A stretch of DNA of 63,985 nt, counting the filler, from Craspedostauros australis (taxonomy: Eukaryota): the NCBI GenBank assembly GCA_030167865.1. It is 13 parts of 13 records of this genome, joined end to end, with 100 filler letters (N's around TTAATTAATTAA, not from the genome) between each part and the next. Parts side by side here need not be neighbours in the genome. Positions count along the whole stretch, not along the records: positions 29,473 to 35,767 come from JALAGF010005952.1; 12 more parts are not named here. One strand, written 5' to 3'. A program made the position numbers and the translations under genes. Positions 22,949 through 44,129 of the stretch are shown in pieces. Each line of letters begins with the position of its first letter. The first letter of the stretch is position 1. The notes below the pieces were generated by a model, which saw only the letters and a list, made by a program, of their open reading frames with translations, did no database searches and had not been told where the DNA came from.

Positions 22949-25900
22949 TTATGCATGGTATGGCAAATGAAATTGAAAAGAGATGAAAATGTTGTGCTCA
23001 CAGTTCTGAGAATGCAACAACAGGAATAGGTAATCAGATACAACTAATAAGGCTGGGTTACCCGGATTTCTCAACACATATCCGATGAACACCATCTCTT
23101 CTCCTCTATTCTTGAGCTTGGCAGAGATCCTGCCATAGGTGGTCTTCACAACAACCACCTCTCCGAATGTTCGAAGTGAATCGGCGTATGGTGGATTGCT
23201 GTCAAAGCTTTGGCAATGGCAGTGGCAGTGCTTGCAGCTGCTGCCCACAGGCCATGCCTCTATTTGTTGTTGAGTTGTGCTCCCTTGAGCATGGAACGGA
23301 TCTTGGTGTAGAGATACGCAAACTTGCGTTCTACTCTACCATTCCGCTGTGGCGTGTTGGACGCCATGAACTCGAATTTCGCATTCAGTCCTGCATCGAT
23401 GAGAGTATCCTGCGTGGATTTGTTCTCTCCGCTGTTATTACCTTGGAAAATGATTTGTTGATCACCTGTGTGTGACTTGATCGTCTGCACAAATCGTTTG
23501 ATACCCTGGTTGGTCCCTCTTGTTCTTCAGAAAGAAGCTCCAGCAGTAGTCCGTGAAGCCGTACACGATCAAGGTCCAGTAGCGTTTATCTCCGAAGCCT
23601 ATGTGTTTAGTGTAACTGATATCGATGAAGAGGCGCTTGCCACGGCAAGTCGCTCTTGGGATTCTAGTCTTTGAGATGTTCTTCACTCTCGCATTCGCGA
23701 CAGCACAGTCGCGACATACCAGCATCTCGCTGATGATCTTCCATCCGTATTGAGCGGCTGTCCGCTTCATGGTCTCGAGTGGTGCGTGACGGAGCATTCG
23801 GTGTAAGCTCACCGCGCTCACCTCCTTGGATGGGCTCTTGATGATGGCTGTGGAAGCCTTGTCATCCTCAGTTGGCATGATGGGATACATCAGCACTCCT
23901 GTGATGAATCCATTGGATGGTGGGAAGATGCAATCAAAGATGATCTTCTTCCCAGCTCTGTTGACGATGTCCATCAGAATGCCGTCGTTACCGATCTGGT
24001 AACTGTTGTACAGAGCCTTGTTCGTAGAGAAAAGGTTCACCACCATCTTGGGTGTGTACTTCACATTATTGAGCCAGATAATGTGGCAAGTGTTGTCACG
24101 TTGCTTGACCTTCAAGTGGATGGATCCGATCTTGGGAGAGTCCAGCTTCGTGCTGTCTCCCACTTGAACGAAGGACTTGATGTGCCGCACGTTGAAGAGA
24201 CCGGCGTCTGAGTTCACGATGTGACACAAGGCTCCGCTGTCGGCAAGCCAGGTATTCTTGTTGACCTTGTCCTTGTATTTGGTGCTCAGCTCGTGAAGCT
24301 GTTCCATGGCAGCCGCTGCCATGTCGTCATCTTGATCTTCTTCGTTCCCGTCGTCCATCCTGTGGTAGTCCATGCCATCGTAGTACGGTTCTCCGACTGC
24401 TGGAGTCATGTCTTCTCGGTGAGTTCCTGTCACCGAATCGTATGGCGTGACTTGTGGTCGCTCGCGCAGGAGTACCTGCATACATCCTCCAAGGACGTAG
24501 TGTAATTCCGTCTCTGGAATGGGCTCGTCTTTCCTCCAACAGCCGGTTGAGGATCACTGTGTTGGCGAGAATCTCTTCGATTGATTGGAAATTGTTGGAC
24601 AGTATGGTGCCAATCACGCGCACCCATACTTGTTGCAGTCCCCCCGTTGATCATCCCTGGGAAGAGATGCATGCCTGCTACCATCACGGCGTCGTGGATG
24701 AGCTTTCGTTGCATTGTCTCTGCTGTCAATGTAGGATATGGGATTGTATCATGCCTGTGTATGGTGTCGAAGCCTCTGGCATTCTGGACTGGTGGGAACG
24801 AGATGTCTGTTGGATAGATGACTCTCTTGTTTGGATTGAATCTGTCCACTTCTTGTTCTGATTCATTGCTGCTGTCTTCATGGAAGATACCCATTCTATT
24901 GACCCTCGCCACTGGAGGAGGCGGCGCCTCACCGCCGTTTGTCTCGTCGCCAGAGACGTCTTCGTTGTCTTGATCCGCGCCGTTCTCGTTGGTGTCGGCA
25001 TCGTCTGCGTTCGCGGCCGCTTCCAACTCGATGGCGATGGTCTCTGCTCCCATCTCAGCTGCGTCTCCGGACAGATCAATGATGTCGTTCACATTGAAGC
25101 AGTACTTGTAGCTGACTTCGCGACGTCGGTTGACTTCATGGATGATTGGCTCGTCGCTGAGCCACGCTGGCACGACCTCGTCGTTGTGTACTTCGTCATC
25201 GTTTTCAAAGTGTTGGAAGTGATCGAAGAATGAATCCTTGATGTCGTTGGATACCTCCAAGCAGAGCATCATGTCCAGTATGGAGAGCATCATCTCATGG
25301 CCGCTCTTCTCATGTCTTTCCTTTGCTGTGTTGGCCTGCTCGTCGGCCTTCTTCTTTTTGTTGAACTTCTTCTTTCGGCACTCTACCTTGCGATGTCCGA
25401 TGATGCCGCAGTAGTGGCACTTTCTGTTGAATCTGCTTCCCTTGCCCTTGATGTTTCGATTTTCGTTCTTTCTGTTGTTGTTGGCGTTTTTCTTGTTGTT
25501 TGCCTTCTTGTGTTTGGGACAATTCGCAGATCAATGACCATACACACCACAGTTGTGTCAGATTCCCTTGAAGTTGCTGGTGCTCGCAAAGCCAGTGTCG
25601 TTAGTCTTCATGCTGCTGTCTTGAAATTCGTCGATGTAGGCCTTCCCTCCTTGGTTGGTTATGTATGCTGAGCGAAGTAGTGCTCTGATTGCGTTGATTG
25701 TGACGACAGTGGGTTGAATGTGAGTTGATGTTCAAAGTTGACGACTTGTGCTTTGTACTCGGCACTCACTGTGCTGAGGATCTGCATGATCATTTCCTCG
25801 TTGCTGATCTTGTGCCCAACGTCTTGAAGGCAGGAGCGCAATAGCTTGAGCCATGCAATGTAGACATCTGGATCAGTGTCCTTCTTCATCTTCTTGTTGT

Positions 25901-27550
25901 TGAACTGCCTCTTGAGCTTGATCTTGGTGGCGGCGTCGGATGGCTTGCACTTCTCCGTGAGAGGTTTCCACACCTGATGTGGGTTCCCCTCAGGGAATAT
26001 GTTGGAGATGCATCGATTGTTGTATTGGATGGCTTGCTTGCCTGTACCCTTCTCTGCATCCATCATGAGGATCAGATCGCTGAAGCAGTCAGCTGCCAGC
26101 TCGTAGATCTCCTCCACTACTTCCTTGTCTGCTTCTGTGGTGGCTCCAATTTTGCTCTTGGTTGGGATCTTCGTCTTCCCCAACATCACATCTCTCGTTC
26201 TCTGCGCACGCATGTACGCCTTTTCTTGGGACTCCCAGGCATTGTAGTCCTCCTGACTACCACTGAATAGCGGTGCCTTGATGGGTTGCTTGTTCATGTT
26301 GGCTGATGTTGCCATGTTACTCCGTTGCTTCGTTGATGTTACGCGCATGCTTGTGATCTCCGTTTGTTTCTGTGTGATCACTTTTTCAATTTTCGCTCGT
26401 GTTTCCGCAGAGATGTCTTTTGTCACAAATTCTCCTCCTCATGTTGTCTCACTTTCTCTGCTCTGTTTGGCCGTGCGAATGCTCTTCGCCACACCTGTCT
26501 CTTCTTGCTTCATATTTGTGAGAATGCTCTTCTGCACAAGTTGTAGTCTCGCAAACCGTTCCTCGTTGGTCTCGTTGATCGCGCTTCCTTCTGCGCTAGA
26601 GAGGACAGTGGGTGCACCTGCTTCCTTCTGTGGTTGAAGTGGAGTCTCACTTGCACCTTCTTCTTGTTTGATAGTTGGGTTGGACAGAGGGATGTCTTTC
26701 AATTCCTCTTCCTCACTCATTCAGCCTGCTGCTCCTGAATGATGTGGTCTTCTTCGCACGATCCGATCCGCGGGCTCGCCCTGATCTATCGTTTATAAAC
26801 GTGTTGGAAAGTTCCGTAGACGGATACCTTGCGATCGTGGAAGACAGTGATGGGTGTTATGATGACAATTGCTATTTCATGACATTGCTCCTCTGATGTT
26901 CCTGGTGTCTCTCTCTGACTATGAGTTGGCACACAAGATGCTCTCTTGTCATTGCTCGTATTCTCTCTCTTGATATTTTGCGTTCACAACAAGCAATATT
27001 TCATACTCGATATGTGCTCTGTATTCGACACATGCTCAGCCATCTTGTCCTCTACTGGCCCACTACTCTGCGAGTATTCGCCAATGTTATGTCCAAACTC
27101 CTCCTTGTATATCTATGATCTTGATGTTGCCTGGCCATTGAATCTTTGCCTTCTTGATCTGATGTGGAGACAGCTGCCAACGTGGTGACATGATGACATC
27201 CTGTCAATGTCAGCTGTTGTCTTCCATGGTCCTTCAGATTCCAGATTCCATTGATGATGCAGTGGTCTGGTGAGGGTGTCGTCATTTGAGGTTTAGTTGG
27301 GAAACATATCAAGCCTGACTCGATATCACATGTTTTGTTGATGGATGGACAGACGATGTTCCTTATGCTCTCATAAATGGTTGTTCACAAATTTCCCCAA
27401 AATTTTGGTGGTTTTTGTGTGTCCGAAGTCGTGATGTGATTTCGATCAATCACAGTTCACCATCAACACGAATGTAGTTGCGCCATCTGTGTGTATAGTA
27501 TAAGAGAACAATGAGTGAGCGATGCACATACACATATGCACATTCCAACA
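22949..27550 (-). mobile_element. Degenerate Ty1/Copia LTR retrotransposon, 5' half (LTR-gag-protease-integrase)
   Basis: Minus-strand order: LTR; gag (KLKRQFNNKKMKKDTDPDVYIAWL); broken zinc knuckle *HNCGVYGH*SANC (25519-25560); protease WLADSGA; HRMLRH..CRDC; integrase LFIDIS..FTDYCWSFFLK and NTPQRNGRVERKF; then LRTFGE..KLKNRGEEMVFIGY. Several stops and frameshifts. Confidence 0.9.
26802..27550 (-). repeat. 5' LTR of the Copia element (749 bp)
   Basis: Perfect 8-bp terminal inverted repeat TGTTGGAA..TTCCAACA, about 80 bp upstream of gag. Homologous to 52862-53662 and 57658-58666. Confidence 0.85.
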
Positions 27551-27599: not shown

Positions 27600-28140
27600 T
27601 CCTGGCATCGCTGTCTGCAGTGGTGTCAACTGCATCAAGTGCGGGATCTGGTGGTGGCGCGATGCATGTTGGCAGAGTGATGCTATTGGCACTTGGAACA
27701 GTGGTGAAGTGGTGCAGATACATGCGGAACTTGCAGGCCTGGAAGTTGGCAACCCAATCGTCGTCGCCATCATCTCCACAAGCATGAAACCATGATCAAA
27801 GCTTCCACCTNNNNNNNNNNNNNNNNNNNNNNNNNNNNNNNNNNNNNNNNNNNNNNNNNNTTGCAGGCCTGGAAGTTGGCAACCCAATCGTCGTCGCCAT
27901 CATCTCCACAAGCATGAAACCATGATCAAAGCTTCCACCTGCCACGGACATGGACAAGACTGCCACATCAATGCACCAATTGGGCATGGAAGAAGTCATC
28001 ATCACTGTTGAGCAAATTGTAGAATTCACTGTTGGTGGTAGTCTTGAGGTCATCCCACATGAGGGGAACCACGTCCAACTGAGCCACGCAGAGATGAGGG
28101 AGGCATCAACAAGAGCATGGCGCTACCATTGTTGACAGCC
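27600..28140 (-). pseudogene. Degenerate coding remnant of unknown family next to the LTR
   Basis: One minus frame reads QLDVVPLMWDDLKTTTNSEFYNLLNSDDDFFHAQLVH*CGSLVHVRGRWKL*SWFHACGDD..FQACKFRMYLHHF with isolated TGA stops. Confidence 0.3.
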
Positions 28141-29472: not shown

Positions 29473-30183
29473 CTCCGCCATGAGCATCATTGTTGGTTCA
29501 TTGCACAGACAAAGAACGCAAGGCAGCAGCATGTTCACAAGCTGTGCGGTCGTCGCAGTGCGGTCGTCACCGTGCCGCCGGATTCGCACACAGAGCACTC
29601 TCCACTCCAAGTCACACACTGCCAAGCAGATTGAAAGCTACAGTGCCAATGCCAGCCAATCCAAGTTTCTGGAAGAGACGATCTACGAAGAGCACGTGGC
29701 GAACAAAGCAGAGGGAAATGACGAGAAGCCGCAAGGAGCATGGTTGCTACGCGATTCCATCGACCGTCCCGTATCGCGCTATTGTCCTCATCTCCAGGAG
29801 TTGCGCTCCCGCCATTGTGCCAAAACTGCAGTCGAGACCCTCACCAAGTCCCAGAAGGAGCGATCACTCGCCGTTGGAGCAACAAATGCCAGGGTCACCA
29901 TCCATTCCAATCTTCGAAGCGACCAGTGCCAGCGTGGCGGAAAGACAAGAACCGACGAGGTAGTGGAGTCCAAGCATCCAGAGAGCTTGACGAGCAACAG
30001 AAGCAACCAACGAACCAATGAGCAACCCCATGCAGAGTGCGAGTTCCGTATTGCGGATCATGGTTGACACAGAGTTTCCATATGGCAGATGAAGCACATG
30101 GTCAGCGATCCATGGCCCATGGATACCGTACACCCACATGTCCTCCTTCGTGGTGCTCCCAACTTCATTTGTGAGGTGGATGT
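29473..30183 (+). repeat. 711-bp direct repeat, copy 1 (scaffold start)
   Basis: Appears identical to 35057-35767 (offset 5584); the ORF track gives identical peptides for both copies. Confidence 0.92.
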
Positions 30184-31166
30184 TCCTGTCGATCACCTCG
30201 GTTGGGCATCGATGCTCTGGGAGTCACGAGCCAAGACGGCGGCACTCATGCCTATTGATAGAATGCGCATGGGTGTTGTGTGTTGGTGGTCCGTGTGGTA
30301 GGAACAGCGGAGGCGGCACAGTATCACTCCGCCTGATGCTTGCTGAACGTGTCAACCCATCCCAATACGCAATGTGGTGTTGGTTTGATGTTGAGGACTC
30401 TTGTTGCCCGCGCGGATGGTGATGGTTGCAATGCGGTGGGATGGCAACCAGCCAAATCCAAATGAGGCGGGTCGCAACCAACACAGGCAATCAACAAAGG
30501 CAGTCACATTGGTGGCTTCATCGGTGGCTTCATGGTTGTTCAAGGCATTGGCTCACACCTCAAGTTGGTGCTTGCGATGGCAGGCGGACGGGGGTCAGCG
30601 GTCTTGCAGATGCCACGATGACGCAAGCAAGCGTGGGCCATGGTGCACATGGTGGTGGCGGCGGTGGTGGCGACGATGACAGCTCTCTGTGTTTCCGAAG
30701 GCTTCCACGTTGTTTGCTTCGGATTGGTGTTGCGTTGATTGTGGCCAAACGAGAACTCTGTTGTGGTGCTTCTTTCTTGTTGTTGGTCGCACGCATTTTC
30801 GTGATGGATGGGAACAGAAAGATCCAATCCGCGCGAACCAGACACGTTTGATCAAGAGAAGGAGACAAACACAGGCAAACAGAAGGAGGAGACCATGCGA
30901 ACAAGACAACAACAACACACACACCACTCAACCCCATACTCAACCGCGTGAACAACAAACATCGAATTGCCACTCATCCTACTATTCATCACACAGCGTA
31001 TGGTACTCATACTCATACTCATACAAGCTGTTGCATACACAAACATCGATATCTCTTCCATAGGCAGCTCCGACCACAGACATCCTCGACAGCCAGTCCA
31101 ACGTAAATCGTCCAACGTCCAACGTCCAACGTCTATCGTCCAGCGACCATCCACCACACTCTCAAA

Positions 31167-34100
31167 ATGCCGAGTGTTGCGCAGTATCAACTCATTGATG
31201 CTGCCAAGGCAGGTGACTTGTCAGTGTTGAAGGAGTGGAAGAAGCAGAGCAAGACGCAGAATGAAGGAGATGGTGTCAACTTCAAAATCTACGATGGTTG
31301 GACTCCCCTTCATCTGGCATGCTGCTACGGCCACCTGGAGTGTGTCAAGTACCTCATCGAATCATGTGAGGCGGACATCAACTGCAAAAACAACCAAGGT
31401 TCCACTCCCCTTCATCTCGCATGCATGAACGGCCACCTGGAGTGTGTGAAGTACCTCATCGAATCATGTGAGGCGGACATCAACTGCAAAGACAAATATG
31501 GTGACAATCCCCTTCATCTGGCATGCTGGAACGGCCACCTGGAGTGTGTCAAGTACCTCATCGAATCATGTGAGGCGGACATCAACTGCAAAGACACCTA
31601 TGGTCGCACTCCCCTTCATCTGGCATGCTACAACGGCCAGCTGGAGTGTATCGAGTATCTCATCGAATCAGGTGGGGCAGACATCAACTGCCAAAACAAC
31701 CACGGTTCCACACCCCTTTCTCACGTATGCGAACATGGCAAGCTGGAGTGTATCGAGTCCCTCATCAGAGGACTTTCGCCTTCATCTCACACACAACTGC
31801 AGCAACTACAGCAACGCTTGCAACAAAACGAGCAAGAGAATGAACACAAACACAGTACCCACAAGAGGACCAACATCGCATCGCAGAAGTCCGGCTCAGA
31901 TCCTTCCAAACCGACAGCAGGGCAGACACCATCTACTCGTGTGGACAGGGCGACCAACAGCAACTANNNNNNNNNNNNNNNNNNNNNNNNNNNNNNNNNN
32001 NNNNNNNNNNNNNNNNNNNNNNNNNNNNNNNNNNNNNNNNNNNNNNNNNNNNNNNNNNNNNNNNNNNNNNNNNNNNNNNNNNNNNNNNNNNNNNNNNNNN
32101 NNNNNNNNNCCCCATGCAAGTAACCATCCCTCTTCCCAACCTTCAACCAAAACACGTCCGATACGTCCTCCAATGCATCTACACAGGCAAGATATCCTTC
32201 AACAACAATACTCACGACGACACCGATGATGATGACGCAAACCAGCGTCTCTTCATGCAATGCAACTCTGTTCGACGATGACGATGGCGACCCCTCCAAC
32301 GGCGCCGCATCCCTTCACATTGATACCACCACCACCAACACAAACAATCAGACAAACAATCAGACAAGATGATGAGTCGTCGACATCCAAGAGGCATTGT
32401 GGGAAGGCCCGCCAGTTGCTCCGCACCTTGACCCACCCATCGTACGACTATGAGTGTGGAACCTTCCATGAGTACGATCTACTCTGGGAGTTGCCACAGC
32501 AAAGCGTCCAGCCTGATAGGTACTCTGTTCAAACCTTCATCCAGCCCGTGCGGTCATGACGATCGAAGTTGCTGGAAGAGGACGGTGTCAGACTGATGGC
32601 GGAGAAGAACATGGAGACCAAGCAACCGCAACAGGCCGACACGAAATCAAAGGTCAGCAAGCCCACCAGCGTAGCCAAAGAGGCCAAAGCAGCTGCAAAA
32701 TCAGGTCGTCGTGCGAGTGTCAGCACAGATACACCAAGCAGGGCCAATAGAAGTGCAGCCAAAGATGCGAAAGCTTCGGCTGTGAAACGATCACATGTGA
32801 AGAGTCTGGAGATGCTCGACATGCAAGATCACGAGATGTCATTCGGCTCCTTTGATCCCAGCAAGTTCAACAACAACAAATCGATACCTGTGCCAAACAC
32901 CCCAAGTGGACTCAGCTTCGCAACAGCCACAGCACTCGGCGCAACCTGCGAACGGAGCAGCCAAGACAAGACGAAGTTTGCCCAGAGTTGGAGATGCAGG
33001 CCAAGGCCAACAACGAATTCCAACGCAACGACCAGCAGCGACAAATCGAGGAACAAGAGTTTGGAATTCTTGGAATTCTCGAAGGATGGGCACAACATGC
33101 CAGGCACATCAGACACATCAGGCGCGATGAGTGCAGCCAGCACCCGGCTCTATCTCGAGTTGCGACAACGAACAAGTCTCGCAGCAAGAGCCTGGAGTCA
33201 CTGATCAATCTGCCAAGTCTCTACGACGACGACGACGACGACGATGGCAGCGTCGACGTTGCGACAAGTGCTGCTGCAACGAATGGTGGGAGAAGCTCCG
33301 CGACCCATGTCAAACCTGGAGGTCGGAGCGCGGCATCTACGCCAGCCCCGTTCAGCCGCACACATGAAAAGAGACAACAGTCTTTGTCGTTGAACAAGCG
33401 CAGGTCGACGTTGGCAAGCATCCTCAAGATCAAATCATCATCATGACGTGAAGTGTCGTTGACCAATCCTCCCAAATCGAAGCAACGACCATCTCTGGAA
33501 TCCCGACCATCGCAATTGGCCGATCTTGCCTTGACTAAAGCATCTGCAAAGGAATCATCGTCATCATTGTAGTCGCCACCGTTATCATCATCACAGTCCA
33601 AATCCAAACTCAATCTTCAACAGTTCGAACACGAACACGAACACAGAGGTGTCTCGGCCACACCCCCAAGCCCCATCCAGTCCTGGAGCCTTGAGTTTGG
33701 GAATCGAATTGAAATCGAGCAAGAAGGACCGGGTGGCTCCTTCCCGCAACAGATCTGCATGCAGTTCGTTGCGCCCAAGCGAAGACTCAAAGCAACGACG
33801 TTCACGTGGACGAAGCACGGGTGCTCTGCGTGAGGCGATCAAGGAAAGGATTTCCAAGGTGCTTGGCAATGGGCCCCGATGTCACCACTCCAGCAAAACA
33901 AGAGACGCGTCATCACTATCGATATTACCATCGATATCACCGTCGCCACGACATCGGCGGAGAAGCGCACAGCACACCAGTGGCAAGCCGCACTCGACAT
34001 CGTCAACATCACAGAGTGGAGCGTTCGCCATCAATGCGTCATCGTCGCGACGGAGCAATTCACACATCCTCCTCTGGAAGAAGCTGCCGCTCGCCATCGG

Positions 34101-34702
34101 TGCGGATTCGTCGAAGAACTGCGCAAGTATCGATGGACTCATCGCCATCATCACGGCGACAAGGAACATCTGGCAGTTCGGATGATGTGAGCGCAGCCTC
34201 GAGTTCACGCGAAACCAGCTCAAATGTGCACTCCACTGGTACTGGTTTGCAACAGTGCAACGGCTCACCTTCCCGAAAGCATGCCCAAGGAAGTTGGCGA
34301 ACACCAAATCAACGTGGGCGTAGCCAATGGACACGACGTGCCGAAGATCAGCGAAGGAAGTCCTCCCATGGACGATCACCATCGGCGCGACAACGAAGCA
34401 GAATAAGAGGATATCGAAATGACAGCGTTGAACGGCACAGCAACGAGCAAGATGACAATGGACGACATGGCAAGGAACGGCATGGCAAAGAACAACATGG
34501 CAACAAACGTCCGTCATCACGCGGGGCCCTTCAATCAAATCGTCGTGGGCAAAGCAGATCGTCGACCCGCGATGCTGTCTACCATGAGAAGATGTCTGGC
34601 TCAAAGCAACTGCAACTCACACCAAAGAAAGCGGTCAGGAGCAAGAGCGCGTCTCAGTGCCACCATCCCTTGATGAATGGTACCAAAACTCTCACCCCGT
34701 GA
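31167..34702 (+). pseudogene. Ankyrin-repeat gene (5 repeats) with probable BTB/POZ domain and long S/R-rich tail, frameshifted in this assembly
   Basis: ATG at 31167, N-cap LIDAAKAGDL, 34-aa repeats G.TPLHLAC..GHLECVKYLIESCEADINCK. A shifted frame from 31844 reads IAEVRLRSFQTDSRADTIYSCG..[gap]..VTIPLPNLQPKHVRYVLQCIYTGKISF (BTB-like). Downstream ORFs 32260-32559, 32569-33204, 32988-33446, 33649-34185 and 33806-34702 are broken by stops and frameshifts. The ankyrin part is certain; the BTB and tail linkage are inferred. Confidence 0.7.
31284..31772 (+). repeat. 102-bp coding tandem repeat (ankyrin units starting at 31284, 31386, 31488, 31590, 31692)
   Basis: Framework ggccacctggagtgtgt(c/g)aagtacctcatcgaatcatgtgaggcggacatcaactgcaaa repeats almost exactly in units 1-3. 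Confidence 0.95.
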
Positions 34703-35056
34703 GGCATCACGACACGATGGGATGGAATGAGATGTGCGGGCCGCTCCGTATTTGTATCATACTCCTGACGGTGTGGTAGACTCACGTCGCTGTAATGTAA
34801 TACACCTACGAATGGATTGTAATGTTCTATGATATATGGGATTGGAACAGTACCGCATGCACTATATCTGCTTGTGCAATAGAATGCTGTGATGAAGTCA
34901 TCAGATGTTTCAAGAGATCGAAGGGCTGGATACTGCTCCCACGCTGCCTCCGCCCTGTCTACGACGAGTCTGGTGCGCTCTCTACGGTACAAACGCACAC
35001 AGGGATGTTGCCGATGTCATTCACCAGCAGATAGGACGCCCGTGGTTCCATCTACG

Positions 35057-35767
35057 CTCCGCCATGAGCATCATTGTTGGTTCATTGCACAGACAAAGAA
35101 CGCAAGGCAGCAGCATGTTCACAAGCTGTGCGGTCGTCGCAGTGCGGTCGTCACCGTGCCGCCGGATTCGCACACAGAGCACTCTCCACTCCAAGTCACA
35201 CACTGCCAAGCAGATTGAAAGCTACAGTGCCAATGCCAGCCAATCCAAGTTTCTGGAAGAGACGATCTACGAAGAGCACGTGGCGAACAAAGCAGAGGGA
35301 AATGACGAGAAGCCGCAAGGAGCATGGTTGCTACGCGATTCCATCGACCGTCCCGTATCGCGCTATTGTCCTCATCTCCAGGAGTTGCGCTCCCGCCATT
35401 GTGCCAAAACTGCAGTCGAGACCCTCACCAAGTCCCAGAAGGAGCGATCACTCGCCGTTGGAGCAACAAATGCCAGGGTCACCATCCATTCCAATCTTCG
35501 AAGCGACCAGTGCCAGCGTGGCGGAAAGACAAGAACCGACGAGGTAGTGGAGTCCAAGCATCCAGAGAGCTTGACGAGCAACAGAAGCAACCAACGAACC
35601 AATGAGCAACCCCATGCAGAGTGCGAGTTCCGTATTGCGGATCATGGTTGACACAGAGTTTCCATATGGCAGATGAAGCACATGGTCAGCGATCCATGGC
35701 CCATGGATACCGTACACCCACATGTCCTCCTTCGTGGTGCTCCCAACTTCATTTGTGAGGTGGATGT
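35057..35767 (+). repeat. 711-bp direct repeat, copy 2 (scaffold end)
   Basis: Appears identical to 29473-30183. Confidence 0.92.
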
Positions 35768-42021: not shown

Positions 42022-44129
42022 GATCACTTCCAAATGGATACACTATTTCAAACTTCATGGCTGTAGCTTTTGCAATCTACTTGGAGTGGTGCGGTTGATA
42101 GCATCTCTCAAGAAGGCTGGCCAAATCCATAGATAGGCAGAAGACTGTACAGCGCCATGCCCACCGCACAGGCCTGTCCCACGCAGAAATCCGTGATATC
42201 AGCATTCATAGAATTGGGTCCCTCCGTGACAGATCTAGGGCGGCAGCTCTATGCAATGGCTGACAGAACAGTTGGACCGGGTCAGNAAGTGGTCAATGGG
42301 TATGAATACAGAGGGCGTATCATCGTCCCAAGCTCGGGGCCGGGACTGGCACAATCTGAGGTGCCAAGCTTGGAGTTTCCCGATCTGATCGGCCAAGTGT
42401 CGCAGACCAAATCTTGGGCAATCCAGGTTCATGATATCATGGGCGACATACTCACATTCACAGAAGCAATGTGATCTGGATTGCTCGTGGAGTGCAGTGA
42501 CGGTTCGGTCACAGCTTTGTAGAGGCGCAGATGGCGCAGGCATACACTCCAAGCATGGTGACAAAGCAGCCAGGCTGTGGATAATCCACCGCACACTGGC
42601 CACCAACAAGGTCATGCAATCGCACCAAGTGGAGCTGGCAGGCATTTACGGGGTCCTCGTCATGCTAGAGGTGATATGCGAGGCATGCCAAGTCACCCAA
42701 GGCAAAGCTGTGCCAGAGTGCAATACCGTGGGTGCTCTCAAGGATCTCGGCCGAGCTTGGAATTTATCCCCAGGGTCCGCAGATGCAGACCTGCAGAGAG
42801 CAGTCCACAATCAAAGTCATAAGCTCCCGATCGAGGTGCAAGGGCAGCACATAAAAGGGCACCAAGGCAGCAGCAGGGCGTGGGCAGAGCTAGACGACTG
42901 GGCCCACCTCAACGTGGAGGCAGATCGACTTGCAGGGGCGGTGCGCGCTTCCCTGTCAGAGGAGTGCGTTTACAGCGGCCATATCTGAGGGGAGCGAGCG
43001 TCATTCCACCGCCAATCCAAGCTGATGTCCATAGGATAGGACAACGTATCGGGGGAGCAAGCCACTCAATAGGCAATTGGTATTCTTCAGGCACAAAAGG
43101 TGTTCAGCAGCGGCGACCAGATACAGTGGGAAGCCATTGCAGGGGAGTTACGAGGCCCCGACCATTCCAAAAGGATTATATCATTCAAACTCATTGCAGG
43201 AGAGGCCGTGACAGGAAAATGCATGCAACGGTGGGGCCTGCGCAGCTCCAATATATGTCCCAGTTGTGGAGAACAGGAGAGCAGCGCGCACTTTTGGGAG
43301 TGCAAGGACCCTTCCAGGGTGAGAGCGGCGGCAAGGCCTGCGGCTGACACCCGCAACTGGATGAATCGATATACAACCAGCCCAGGCGTCTCGCAAGCGA
43401 GAGNNNNNNNNNNNNNNNNNNNNNNNNNNNNNNNNNNNNNNNNNNNNNNNNNNGTGGGTGCTCTCAAGGATCTCGGCCGGGCTTGGAATTTATCCCCAGG
43501 GTCCGCAGATGCAGACCTGCAGAGAGCAGTCCACAATCAAAGTCATAAGCTCCTGATCGAGGTGCAAGGGCGGCACATAAAAGGGCACCAAGACAGCAGC
43601 AGGGCATGGGCAGAGCTAGACGACTGGGCCCACCTCAACGTGGAGGCAGATCGACTTGCAGGGGCGGTGCGCGCTTCCCTGTCAGAGGAGTGCGTTTACA
43701 GCGGCCATATCTGAGGGGAGCGAGCGTCATTCCACCGCCAATCCAAGCTGATGTCCATAGGATAGGACAACGTATCGGGGGAGCAAGCCACTCAATAGGC
43801 AATTGGTATTCTTCAGGCACAAAAGGTGTTCAGCAGCGGCGACCAGATACAGTGGGAAGCCATTGCAGGGGAGTTACGAGGCCCCGACCATTCCAAAAGG
43901 ATTATATCATTCAAACTCATTGCAGGAGAGGCCGTGACAGGAAAATGCATGCAACGGTGGGGCCTGCGCAGCTCCAATATATGTCCCAGTTGTGGAGAAC
44001 AGGAGAGCAGCGCGCACTTTTGGGAGTGCAAGGACCCTTCCAGGGTGAGAGCGGCGGCAAGGCCTGCGGCTGACACCCGCAACTGGATGAATCGATATAC
44101 AACCAGCCCAGGCGTCTCGCAAGCGAGAG
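42022..44129 (+). mobile_element. Degenerate non-LTR (LINE) retrotransposon ORF2 C-terminal region with RNase H and CCHC finger, Ambal-like; 42728-43403 duplicated at 43454-44129
   Basis: RNase H motifs ELAGIYGVL..HIKGHQD..LNVEADRLAG followed by CPSCGEQESSAHFWEC. Frameshifts and stops present. Confidence 0.8.

Follow-up and report, generated by a model that had tools for sequence, protein, structure and literature searches.

Shuffled ankyrin arrays with a diversifying binding face, in part joined to a BTB-BACK module, in the diatom Craspedostauros australis

Introduction

The division of selection between the two ends of nematode adaptor proteins was reportedly first described in 2006 by Thomas. 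Nematode MATH-BTB and F-box genes, like their plant counterparts, form large birth-death families in which diversification falls on the binder and purification on the cullin side (PMC4334554), and chlamydial BTB-LRR expansions offer a further parallel (PMC4209131). The ANK, TPR, and WD repeats of Podospora NLR/HET proteins are described as having high internal conservation, and fungal repeat arrays under such a regime are reported to control allorecognition (PMC4986451). Among stramenopiles, the LRR-ROCO and NB-ARC-TPR candidate receptors of Ectocarpus carry shuffled repeats under diversifying selection (PMC3341825). By design rather than evolution, DARPin libraries are randomised at six positions (PMC9611651), and engineered DARPin-SPOP fusions have been reported to degrade their targets (10.1101/728071). 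Two diatom genome papers touch briefly on ankyrin or BTB expansions (10.1101/2025.10.24.684338, PMC7335047), one of them reporting sexual-stage expression of BTB/POZ families in Seminavis robusta, with fast-evolving genes among them (PMC7335047). In a literature search whose coverage excluded supplements and subscription journals, we found no paper on the ankyrin-BTB family described here.

We analysed this family starting from one gene in a 63,985-nt stretch of C. australis DNA (the window), which consists of contigs joined by N-TTAATTAATTAA-N linkers. The closest named homologues carry a diatom label, in agreement with the host assignment of a first-pass annotation of this DNA. Two of four close homologues are labelled C. 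australis; one of the two derives from a transcriptome and has 92% identity to a divergent family member in this genome, an indirect sign of expression that extends to the wider family only. One sequencing run of uncertain kind shares 20% of words; its contigs cover coding and non-coding DNA alike, and none spans the array.

Results

The Ankyrin Gene of the Window

The coordinates of the gene and its parts are given in table 1. Pfam reads only ankyrin repeats in the open reading frame (Ank_2, E 3.5e-70), which has no in-frame BTB. Its last codon is TA+N at the edge of an assembly gap, and we infer the stop codon because sister gene C1053 reads TAA at that place. By its tandem TPLH helix-turn-helix repeats the product is an ankyrin repeat protein; the array can be aligned with PDB entries for DARPins and ankyrins, its Pfam Ank and Ank_2 matches lie far above the cut-off, and in register alignment with solved DARPin repeats its units have one additional residue after helix 2. 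TRF calls the array at 31276-31718 with a period of 102 bp, 4.3 copies, 86% matches, and 0 indels. Of the five units read in the first-pass annotation, four are full units and the fifth is the C-terminal cap.

Table 1. Features of the window gene and its surroundings (window positions)
Feature	Position	Strand	Remarks
Contig of the ankyrin gene (G000:C5952)	29473..35767		5584-bp deletion form of a 7.5-9 kb cassette
ORF, 266 aa	31167..31967	+	N-cap, 4 ankyrin units, C-cap, short Gln-rich tail
N-terminal capping repeat	31167..31286	+	Codons 11, 14, 15 diversify across the family
Four internal ankyrin units, 102 bp (34 aa) each	31287..31694	+	From TRF and register against DARPin repeats
Bounds of the internal units	31287-31388, 31389-31490, 31491-31592, 31593-31694	+	
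C-terminal capping repeat	31695..31796	+	"LIRGLSPS" type
Gln/Glu-rich linker	31797..31877	+	1-bp loss near its end
Out-of-frame BTB remnant	31878..32246	+	Broken by assembly gap 31967-32109
Ser-rich ORF of the cassette	32560-33446		Broken in the window
Copia-type gag ORF (Pfam Retrotran_gag_2)	25659-26438	-	On a different contig

The original description of units 1-3 (phase start 31284) was accurate: the framework differs by two synonymous changes (CTG/CTC and GTC/GTG), the five surface motifs were quoted correctly, and 14 of the 16 polymorphic columns fall in seven variable codons, all of them changing the amino acid. We take the positions randomised in DARPins to be unit positions 2, 3, 5, 13, 14, and 33, and 11 of the 16 columns fall within the 18 nt of these six pre-chosen positions (hypergeometric p = 5e-7). 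The leucine after TPLH looks like framework in this array; family-wide, with 3.58 bits and 19 amino acids, it ranks second in variability. No unit of the window is identical to another of the 616 family units recovered, the nearest being 3, 6, 5, and 10 nt away.

The 1-bp loss in the linker shifts the frame at the BTB entry and is common to the window copy, C1053, and C5131, and after position 32246 the window copy is without approximately 2 kb that sister cassettes have. The contig begins and ends with the same 711 bp, and elsewhere in the genome cassette copies lie head-to-tail, with several family genes spaced 7.5-9 kb apart. We rejected a mobile-element reading of the cassette: eight ORFs, from the cassette and the neighbouring DNA, are without Pfam match, and one has weak Atlas matches only. 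The cassette may still be a non-autonomous element. The Ser-rich ORF, which reaches ~360 aa (L080:4413-5495), has no Pfam match and no convincing Atlas match. On C5131 (L083:7418-10000, L084), retrotransposon-like ORFs, two of which have no Pfam match, lie between family members, and the Copia-type ORF of the window is unlinked to the ankyrin gene. The window also contains many 50-N gaps flanked by direct duplications (e.g., 27731-27940 and 42728-43753); because this pattern is typical of unmerged scaffold overlaps, we treat duplications near such gaps as assembly effects.

Family Size and Unit Diversity

The window array is one of many in the genome. Scoring 40 of the 239 candidates from a genome DNA search yielded at least 82 matches, and the N-cap motif has 121 genome matches compared with 0 for a reversed control, corresponding to at least 121 gene starts, with gene counts possibly up to twofold too high because alleles and paralogues are not separated. 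The exact unit motif has 798 genome matches, and because 394 of the 616 recovered units match it, we estimate that the genome holds ~1,250 units. The sample analysed, which is biased to genes with a window-type N-cap, comprises 110 loci with 106 gene starts and 616 units, 599 of them in frame; among the 598 in-frame units free of N, 582 are distinct.

Genes contain from 1 to 60 units, and stop codons are present in 3 of the 616 units. The units are intron-free and abut at exact 102-bp steps, 60 of them in one frame in the longest case, and we therefore rejected the exon-shuffled receptor type of brown algae as a model. Positions 2, 3, 5, 10, 13, and 14 have an amino-acid entropy of 2.5-3.7 bits and 17-20 amino acids each, with third codon bases nearly fixed, compared with less than 0.75 bits at the motif core. 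Other subfamilies have unit types of their own, whose identity to the main consensus is 62-68% and 71-81%.

Several members stand out individually. The C3870 gene (L105, G000:C3870:19482 onward) has 60 ankyrin units, 59 of them distinct, in one open frame of 2444 aa that ends in an in-frame BTB module. A divergent ankyrin-BTB subfamily (L116, L117; P0003, P0004) has its own unit type, a varying number of units (535, 565, and 599 aa), and a hydrophobic C-terminal segment that is possibly a membrane anchor. Foreign low-complexity stretches follow the array in L069 (C4142; Asn-rich insert) and unit 1 in L102 (C6005; Tyr-Ser-Pro-rich). The database protein P0001, a patchwork of exact matches to many loci with an intact BTB and no internal ankyrin unit, is either a transcript-assembly chimera or a converted gene.

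Shuffling and Homogenisation of Units

Genes that are otherwise nearly the same differ in how many repeats they have and in what order, in line with the repeat shuffling proposed in the first-pass annotation, here in a comparison of genes within one assembly. C1560 and C3071 differ by one unit and agree exactly in four units and in a tail of 189 nt. C2306 and C5384 agree exactly in three units and the tail, and the array of one of them opens with a unit that fuses two units of the other. Blocks of several units recur within genes, and 12 of the 16 identical unit pairs are between genes. The 386 internal units form 374 hairpin-helix combinations, and the association between unit positions falls with distance (rho -0.36, p 1e-4). 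Units are thus gained and lost within this assembly; individual differences in unit number are possibly the result of mis-assembly, the assembly being fragmented and unit order open to mis-joining.

The nearest neighbour lies in the same gene for 124 of the 598 units compared with an expectation of 1.8%. A homogenised framework, the other part of the original claim, is present, but mostly as a property of the family rather than of single arrays: mean unit distance is 18.2 nt within genes and 21.4 nt between genes, and because these values are close the unit pool is largely family-wide. Identity to the gene's own consensus, a measure other than T-REKS, reaches 85% in only 13 of the 92 genes with at least three units (median 0.80; window copy 0.846), which is lower than in fungal HiC arrays because units mix across the family. 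This identity, together with the absence of any NACHT or NB-ARC match in Pfam from the window protein and five family proteins, led us to reject a fungal-type NLR with HiC repeats. The fungal analogy drawn in the first-pass annotation accordingly fails at its core and survives at the surface, where positive selection on the concave face is found here too.

Selection on the Binding Surface

The six pre-chosen codons have a pN of 0.47, compared with a framework pS of 0.19, a strong non-synonymous excess that agrees with the original claim. A count independent of any tree gave the same picture: along the 105 closest unit pairs (the shortest spanning-tree edges) these codons show 183.5 non-synonymous and 11.5 synonymous steps, the former at 3.5 times the overall synonymous rate, with a nominal p of 8e-23 that overstates significance since the edges are not independent. 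Multi-base codon differences make up 49 of 184 at variable codons versus 10 of 176 in the framework, which is consistent with exchange of whole codons. A codon model run on three subsamples of ~60 units each returned an omega of ~6 at the six DARPin positions in all three (2dlnL 38-42, p ~1e-10).

The N-cap, which is single-copy per gene, repeats the unit pattern of surface diversification: across 103 distinct caps, dN is 0.70 and dS 0.20 at codons 11, 14, and 15, compared with dN 0.10 and dS 0.21 elsewhere, codons 20-27 being fixed by the search motif. At five variable codons of the C-cap, dN (0.60) is not above dS at the same codons (0.63) and is above dS elsewhere (0.11). In a mostly BTB-less gene type dN at the six codons reaches 0.77 compared with a framework dS of 0.14. 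In the BTB module dN/dS is 0.44, and none of the 78 pairs exceeds 1. Selection is positive on the hairpin and helix-1 binding face, which it diversifies, and purifying on the BTB-BACK module.

We consider it very improbable that the pattern arose without selection, from relaxed surface positions, local hypermutation, or assembly chimeras among drifting duplicates. The assembly does consist of short contigs with gaps, most copies are truncated, and the tree model gives a framework omega of 0.7-0.9, near 1 and higher than expected of a constrained scaffold; recombination can inflate tree-based omega. The high framework value in part reflects semi-variable positions and recombination, and 17 core codons have an omega of 0.28-0.39. 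Relaxation, however, cannot lift dN above dS, and the tree-free counts show dN above dS. Moreover, variable codons keep their third base (T in 528 of 582 units at position 3) and framework adenines are unmutated (A in 571 and in 560 of 582), a pattern that speaks against mutagenesis acting locally or on adenines, and the scarcity of stops counts against drift. For the codon pattern, an origin without selection is therefore largely refuted. A diversity-generating retroelement target was likewise rejected, because all four bases vary at codon positions 1 and 2 while framework adenines are invariant.

The BTB-BACK Module and Its Loss

Full-length members end in a BTB-BACK module, which the first-pass annotation had missed; a Pfam BTB match is above the cut-off in four of five longer family proteins, and BACK/3-box helices, absent from the window copy, follow. 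Searched by sequence alone, the BTB part has no match in the PDB. The predicted BTB-BACK model has a pLDDT of 89.8, and its best Foldseek matches are SPOP (BTB chain, E 6e-7 to 8e-7, TM 0.81, 15% identity), whose BACK helices align with those of the model. Among 91 library matches to the BTB module, 32 of which were scanned, ankyrins are found in the closest, and MATH, BTB, BACK, and SAP in the next. In a quick, midpoint-rooted BTB tree, in which rows P0014 and P0020 were labelled MATH by eye in the absence of a Pfam MATH match, the ankyrin-BTB rows form one branch (SH-aLRT 99) nested inside MATH-BTB rows. Family members have no N-terminal MATH domain and carry ankyrins in its place, and from tree and fold we infer that ankyrins replaced MATH.

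SPOP contacts Cullin-3 through an acidic motif in its alpha3-beta4 loop. This motif is not kept in the family, where the aligned stretch is SGIQHQ-like compared with HEMEES in SPOP, and it is also missing from most related MATH-BTB proteins. The genome has a Cullin-3 orthologue. A complex prediction without alignments, in which a Cullin-3 from another diatom (79% identical) stood in for it, gave no answer for the BTB module (score 0.00).

Among the 106 genes, 19 have BTB in frame (C3870 included), 66 stop after the array, four break within it, and 17 are unclassified owing to gaps or contig ends; the window copy is among the 17, and by homology it is frameshifted, deleted, and cut just before BTB. 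Thus 66 of the 89 classifiable genes are without in-frame BTB, which excludes degradation as the role of most copies. Lesions are concentrated where the BTB module begins: at least ten different stops and 1-bp losses fall there, with 114 lesion calls in the first 120 nt, some of them alignment artefacts, and most later bins hold 0.05-0.15 calls per gene per 60 nt. An intron that would restore the BTB frame was rejected, as 56 linkers aligned and inspected by eye have no common splice signals. The dead BTB tail has ~1.4 lesions per kb, common by descent, whereas of the 74 non-intact genes only 7 carry a break in their ankyrin sequence, which totals 54.6 kb; BTB-less arrays therefore appear to be maintained, by selection or conversion.

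These observations bear on whether the repertoire works without Cullin-3, with BTB-BACK oligomerising the ankyrins for avidity and ankyrin-only forms as the main active stoichiometric inhibitors. The loss of BTB through so many different lesions at its entry, the persistence of selection in the mostly BTB-less gene type, and the missing acidic motif all favour this reading, which we nonetheless regard as unlikely: BTB-BACK is under purifying selection and has SPOP-like BACK helices, many further loci run from ankyrin to BTB without stops, and lesion clustering could reflect conversion repairing the common 3' part rather than an entry specific to one type.

Discussion

On balance we lean towards a lineage-specific, diversifying cytosolic binder repertoire built on a Cullin-3-adaptor scaffold, whose full-length members would have their targets degraded and whose BTB-less copies would act as blockers and donors. 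The ancestral gene would have been a Cullin-3 adaptor of the SPOP/BPM type (MATH-BTB-BACK) in which, as tree and fold suggest, ankyrin repeats replaced MATH, and a young branch would then have expanded through tandem duplication. The shuffling pattern points to unequal crossing-over and gene conversion among the 102-bp units, which would alter unit number and recombine codons, while positive selection diversifies the hairpin and helix-1 face. The full-length proteins most likely capture fast-evolving targets of foreign or selfish origin and pass them to Cullin-3 for degradation, and BTB-less members such as the window copy are most likely stand-alone blocking binders and donors of units. Non-self sensing, which the first-pass annotation had proposed as possible, may be the role of the repertoire. 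We find doubtful the bolder form of this proposal, a natural "DARPin-degrader" library in which a thousand-unit pool is recombined fast, possibly in clonal growth, into new specificities against parasites, with full-length members degrading via Cullin-3 and truncated ones selected as blockers and donors.

The selecting partner could instead be the diatom's own, such as mating or self-non-self factors, toxin-antidote systems, or drive elements, with no pathogen involved. Positive selection does not name its partner, and both the sexual-stage BTB/POZ families of S. robusta (PMC7335047) and the allorecognition role of fungal arrays under this regime (PMC4986451) speak for a partner of this kind. 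We think it quite unlikely, because 582 distinct units in one genome would exceed the plausible need of a few host partners and the cassette yielded no conserved partner gene.

The binder repertoire that we favour resembles each of the described systems in part. With fungal NLR/HET proteins it has in common ankyrin repeat-number variation, recombination among repeats, and positive selection at inner-helix and hairpin positions (PMC4986451), but it has neither NACHT/NB-ARC nor a death effector, and its output module is BTB-BACK. With the MATH-BTB and F-box expansions it shares the birth-death expansion, the split of selection, and descent of BTB-BACK from MATH-BTB proteins, yet its binder is a recombining array of 1-60 ankyrin units rather than one MATH or FTH domain, and the majority of its copies drop BTB. 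Compared with the SPOP/BPM Cullin-3 adaptors, whose BTB-BACK fold it is predicted to have, it carries ankyrins and a Gln/Glu-rich linker in place of MATH, its identity is low, the acidic loop motif is absent, and its relatives carry a C-terminal SAP match. The Ectocarpus receptors, as described, have one exon per repeat and a GTPase or NB-ARC (PMC3341825), unlike the contiguous blocks found here. A similar layout is found in DARPins and DARPin-SPOP bioPROTACs, with their fixed framework, caps, variable hairpin and helix 1, and a binder that replaces MATH (PMC9611651, 10.1101/728071); the diatom units differ in being natural, 34 aa long, and Cys-rich, with position 10 highly variable and position 33 modestly so.

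Each ingredient is known; what appears new is that a diatom combines them, on this scale and with most copies truncated. The family unites repeat shuffling with the arms races of ubiquitin adaptors in an architecture that engineers later built by hand, and its 582 natural units reveal which ankyrin positions and residues selection uses, position 10 included. Diatoms face viruses and parasites, and our literature search found no described diversifying recognition repertoire in them. The family provides concrete candidates with a measurable selection signature, and suggests an immune-like binder library in an alga.
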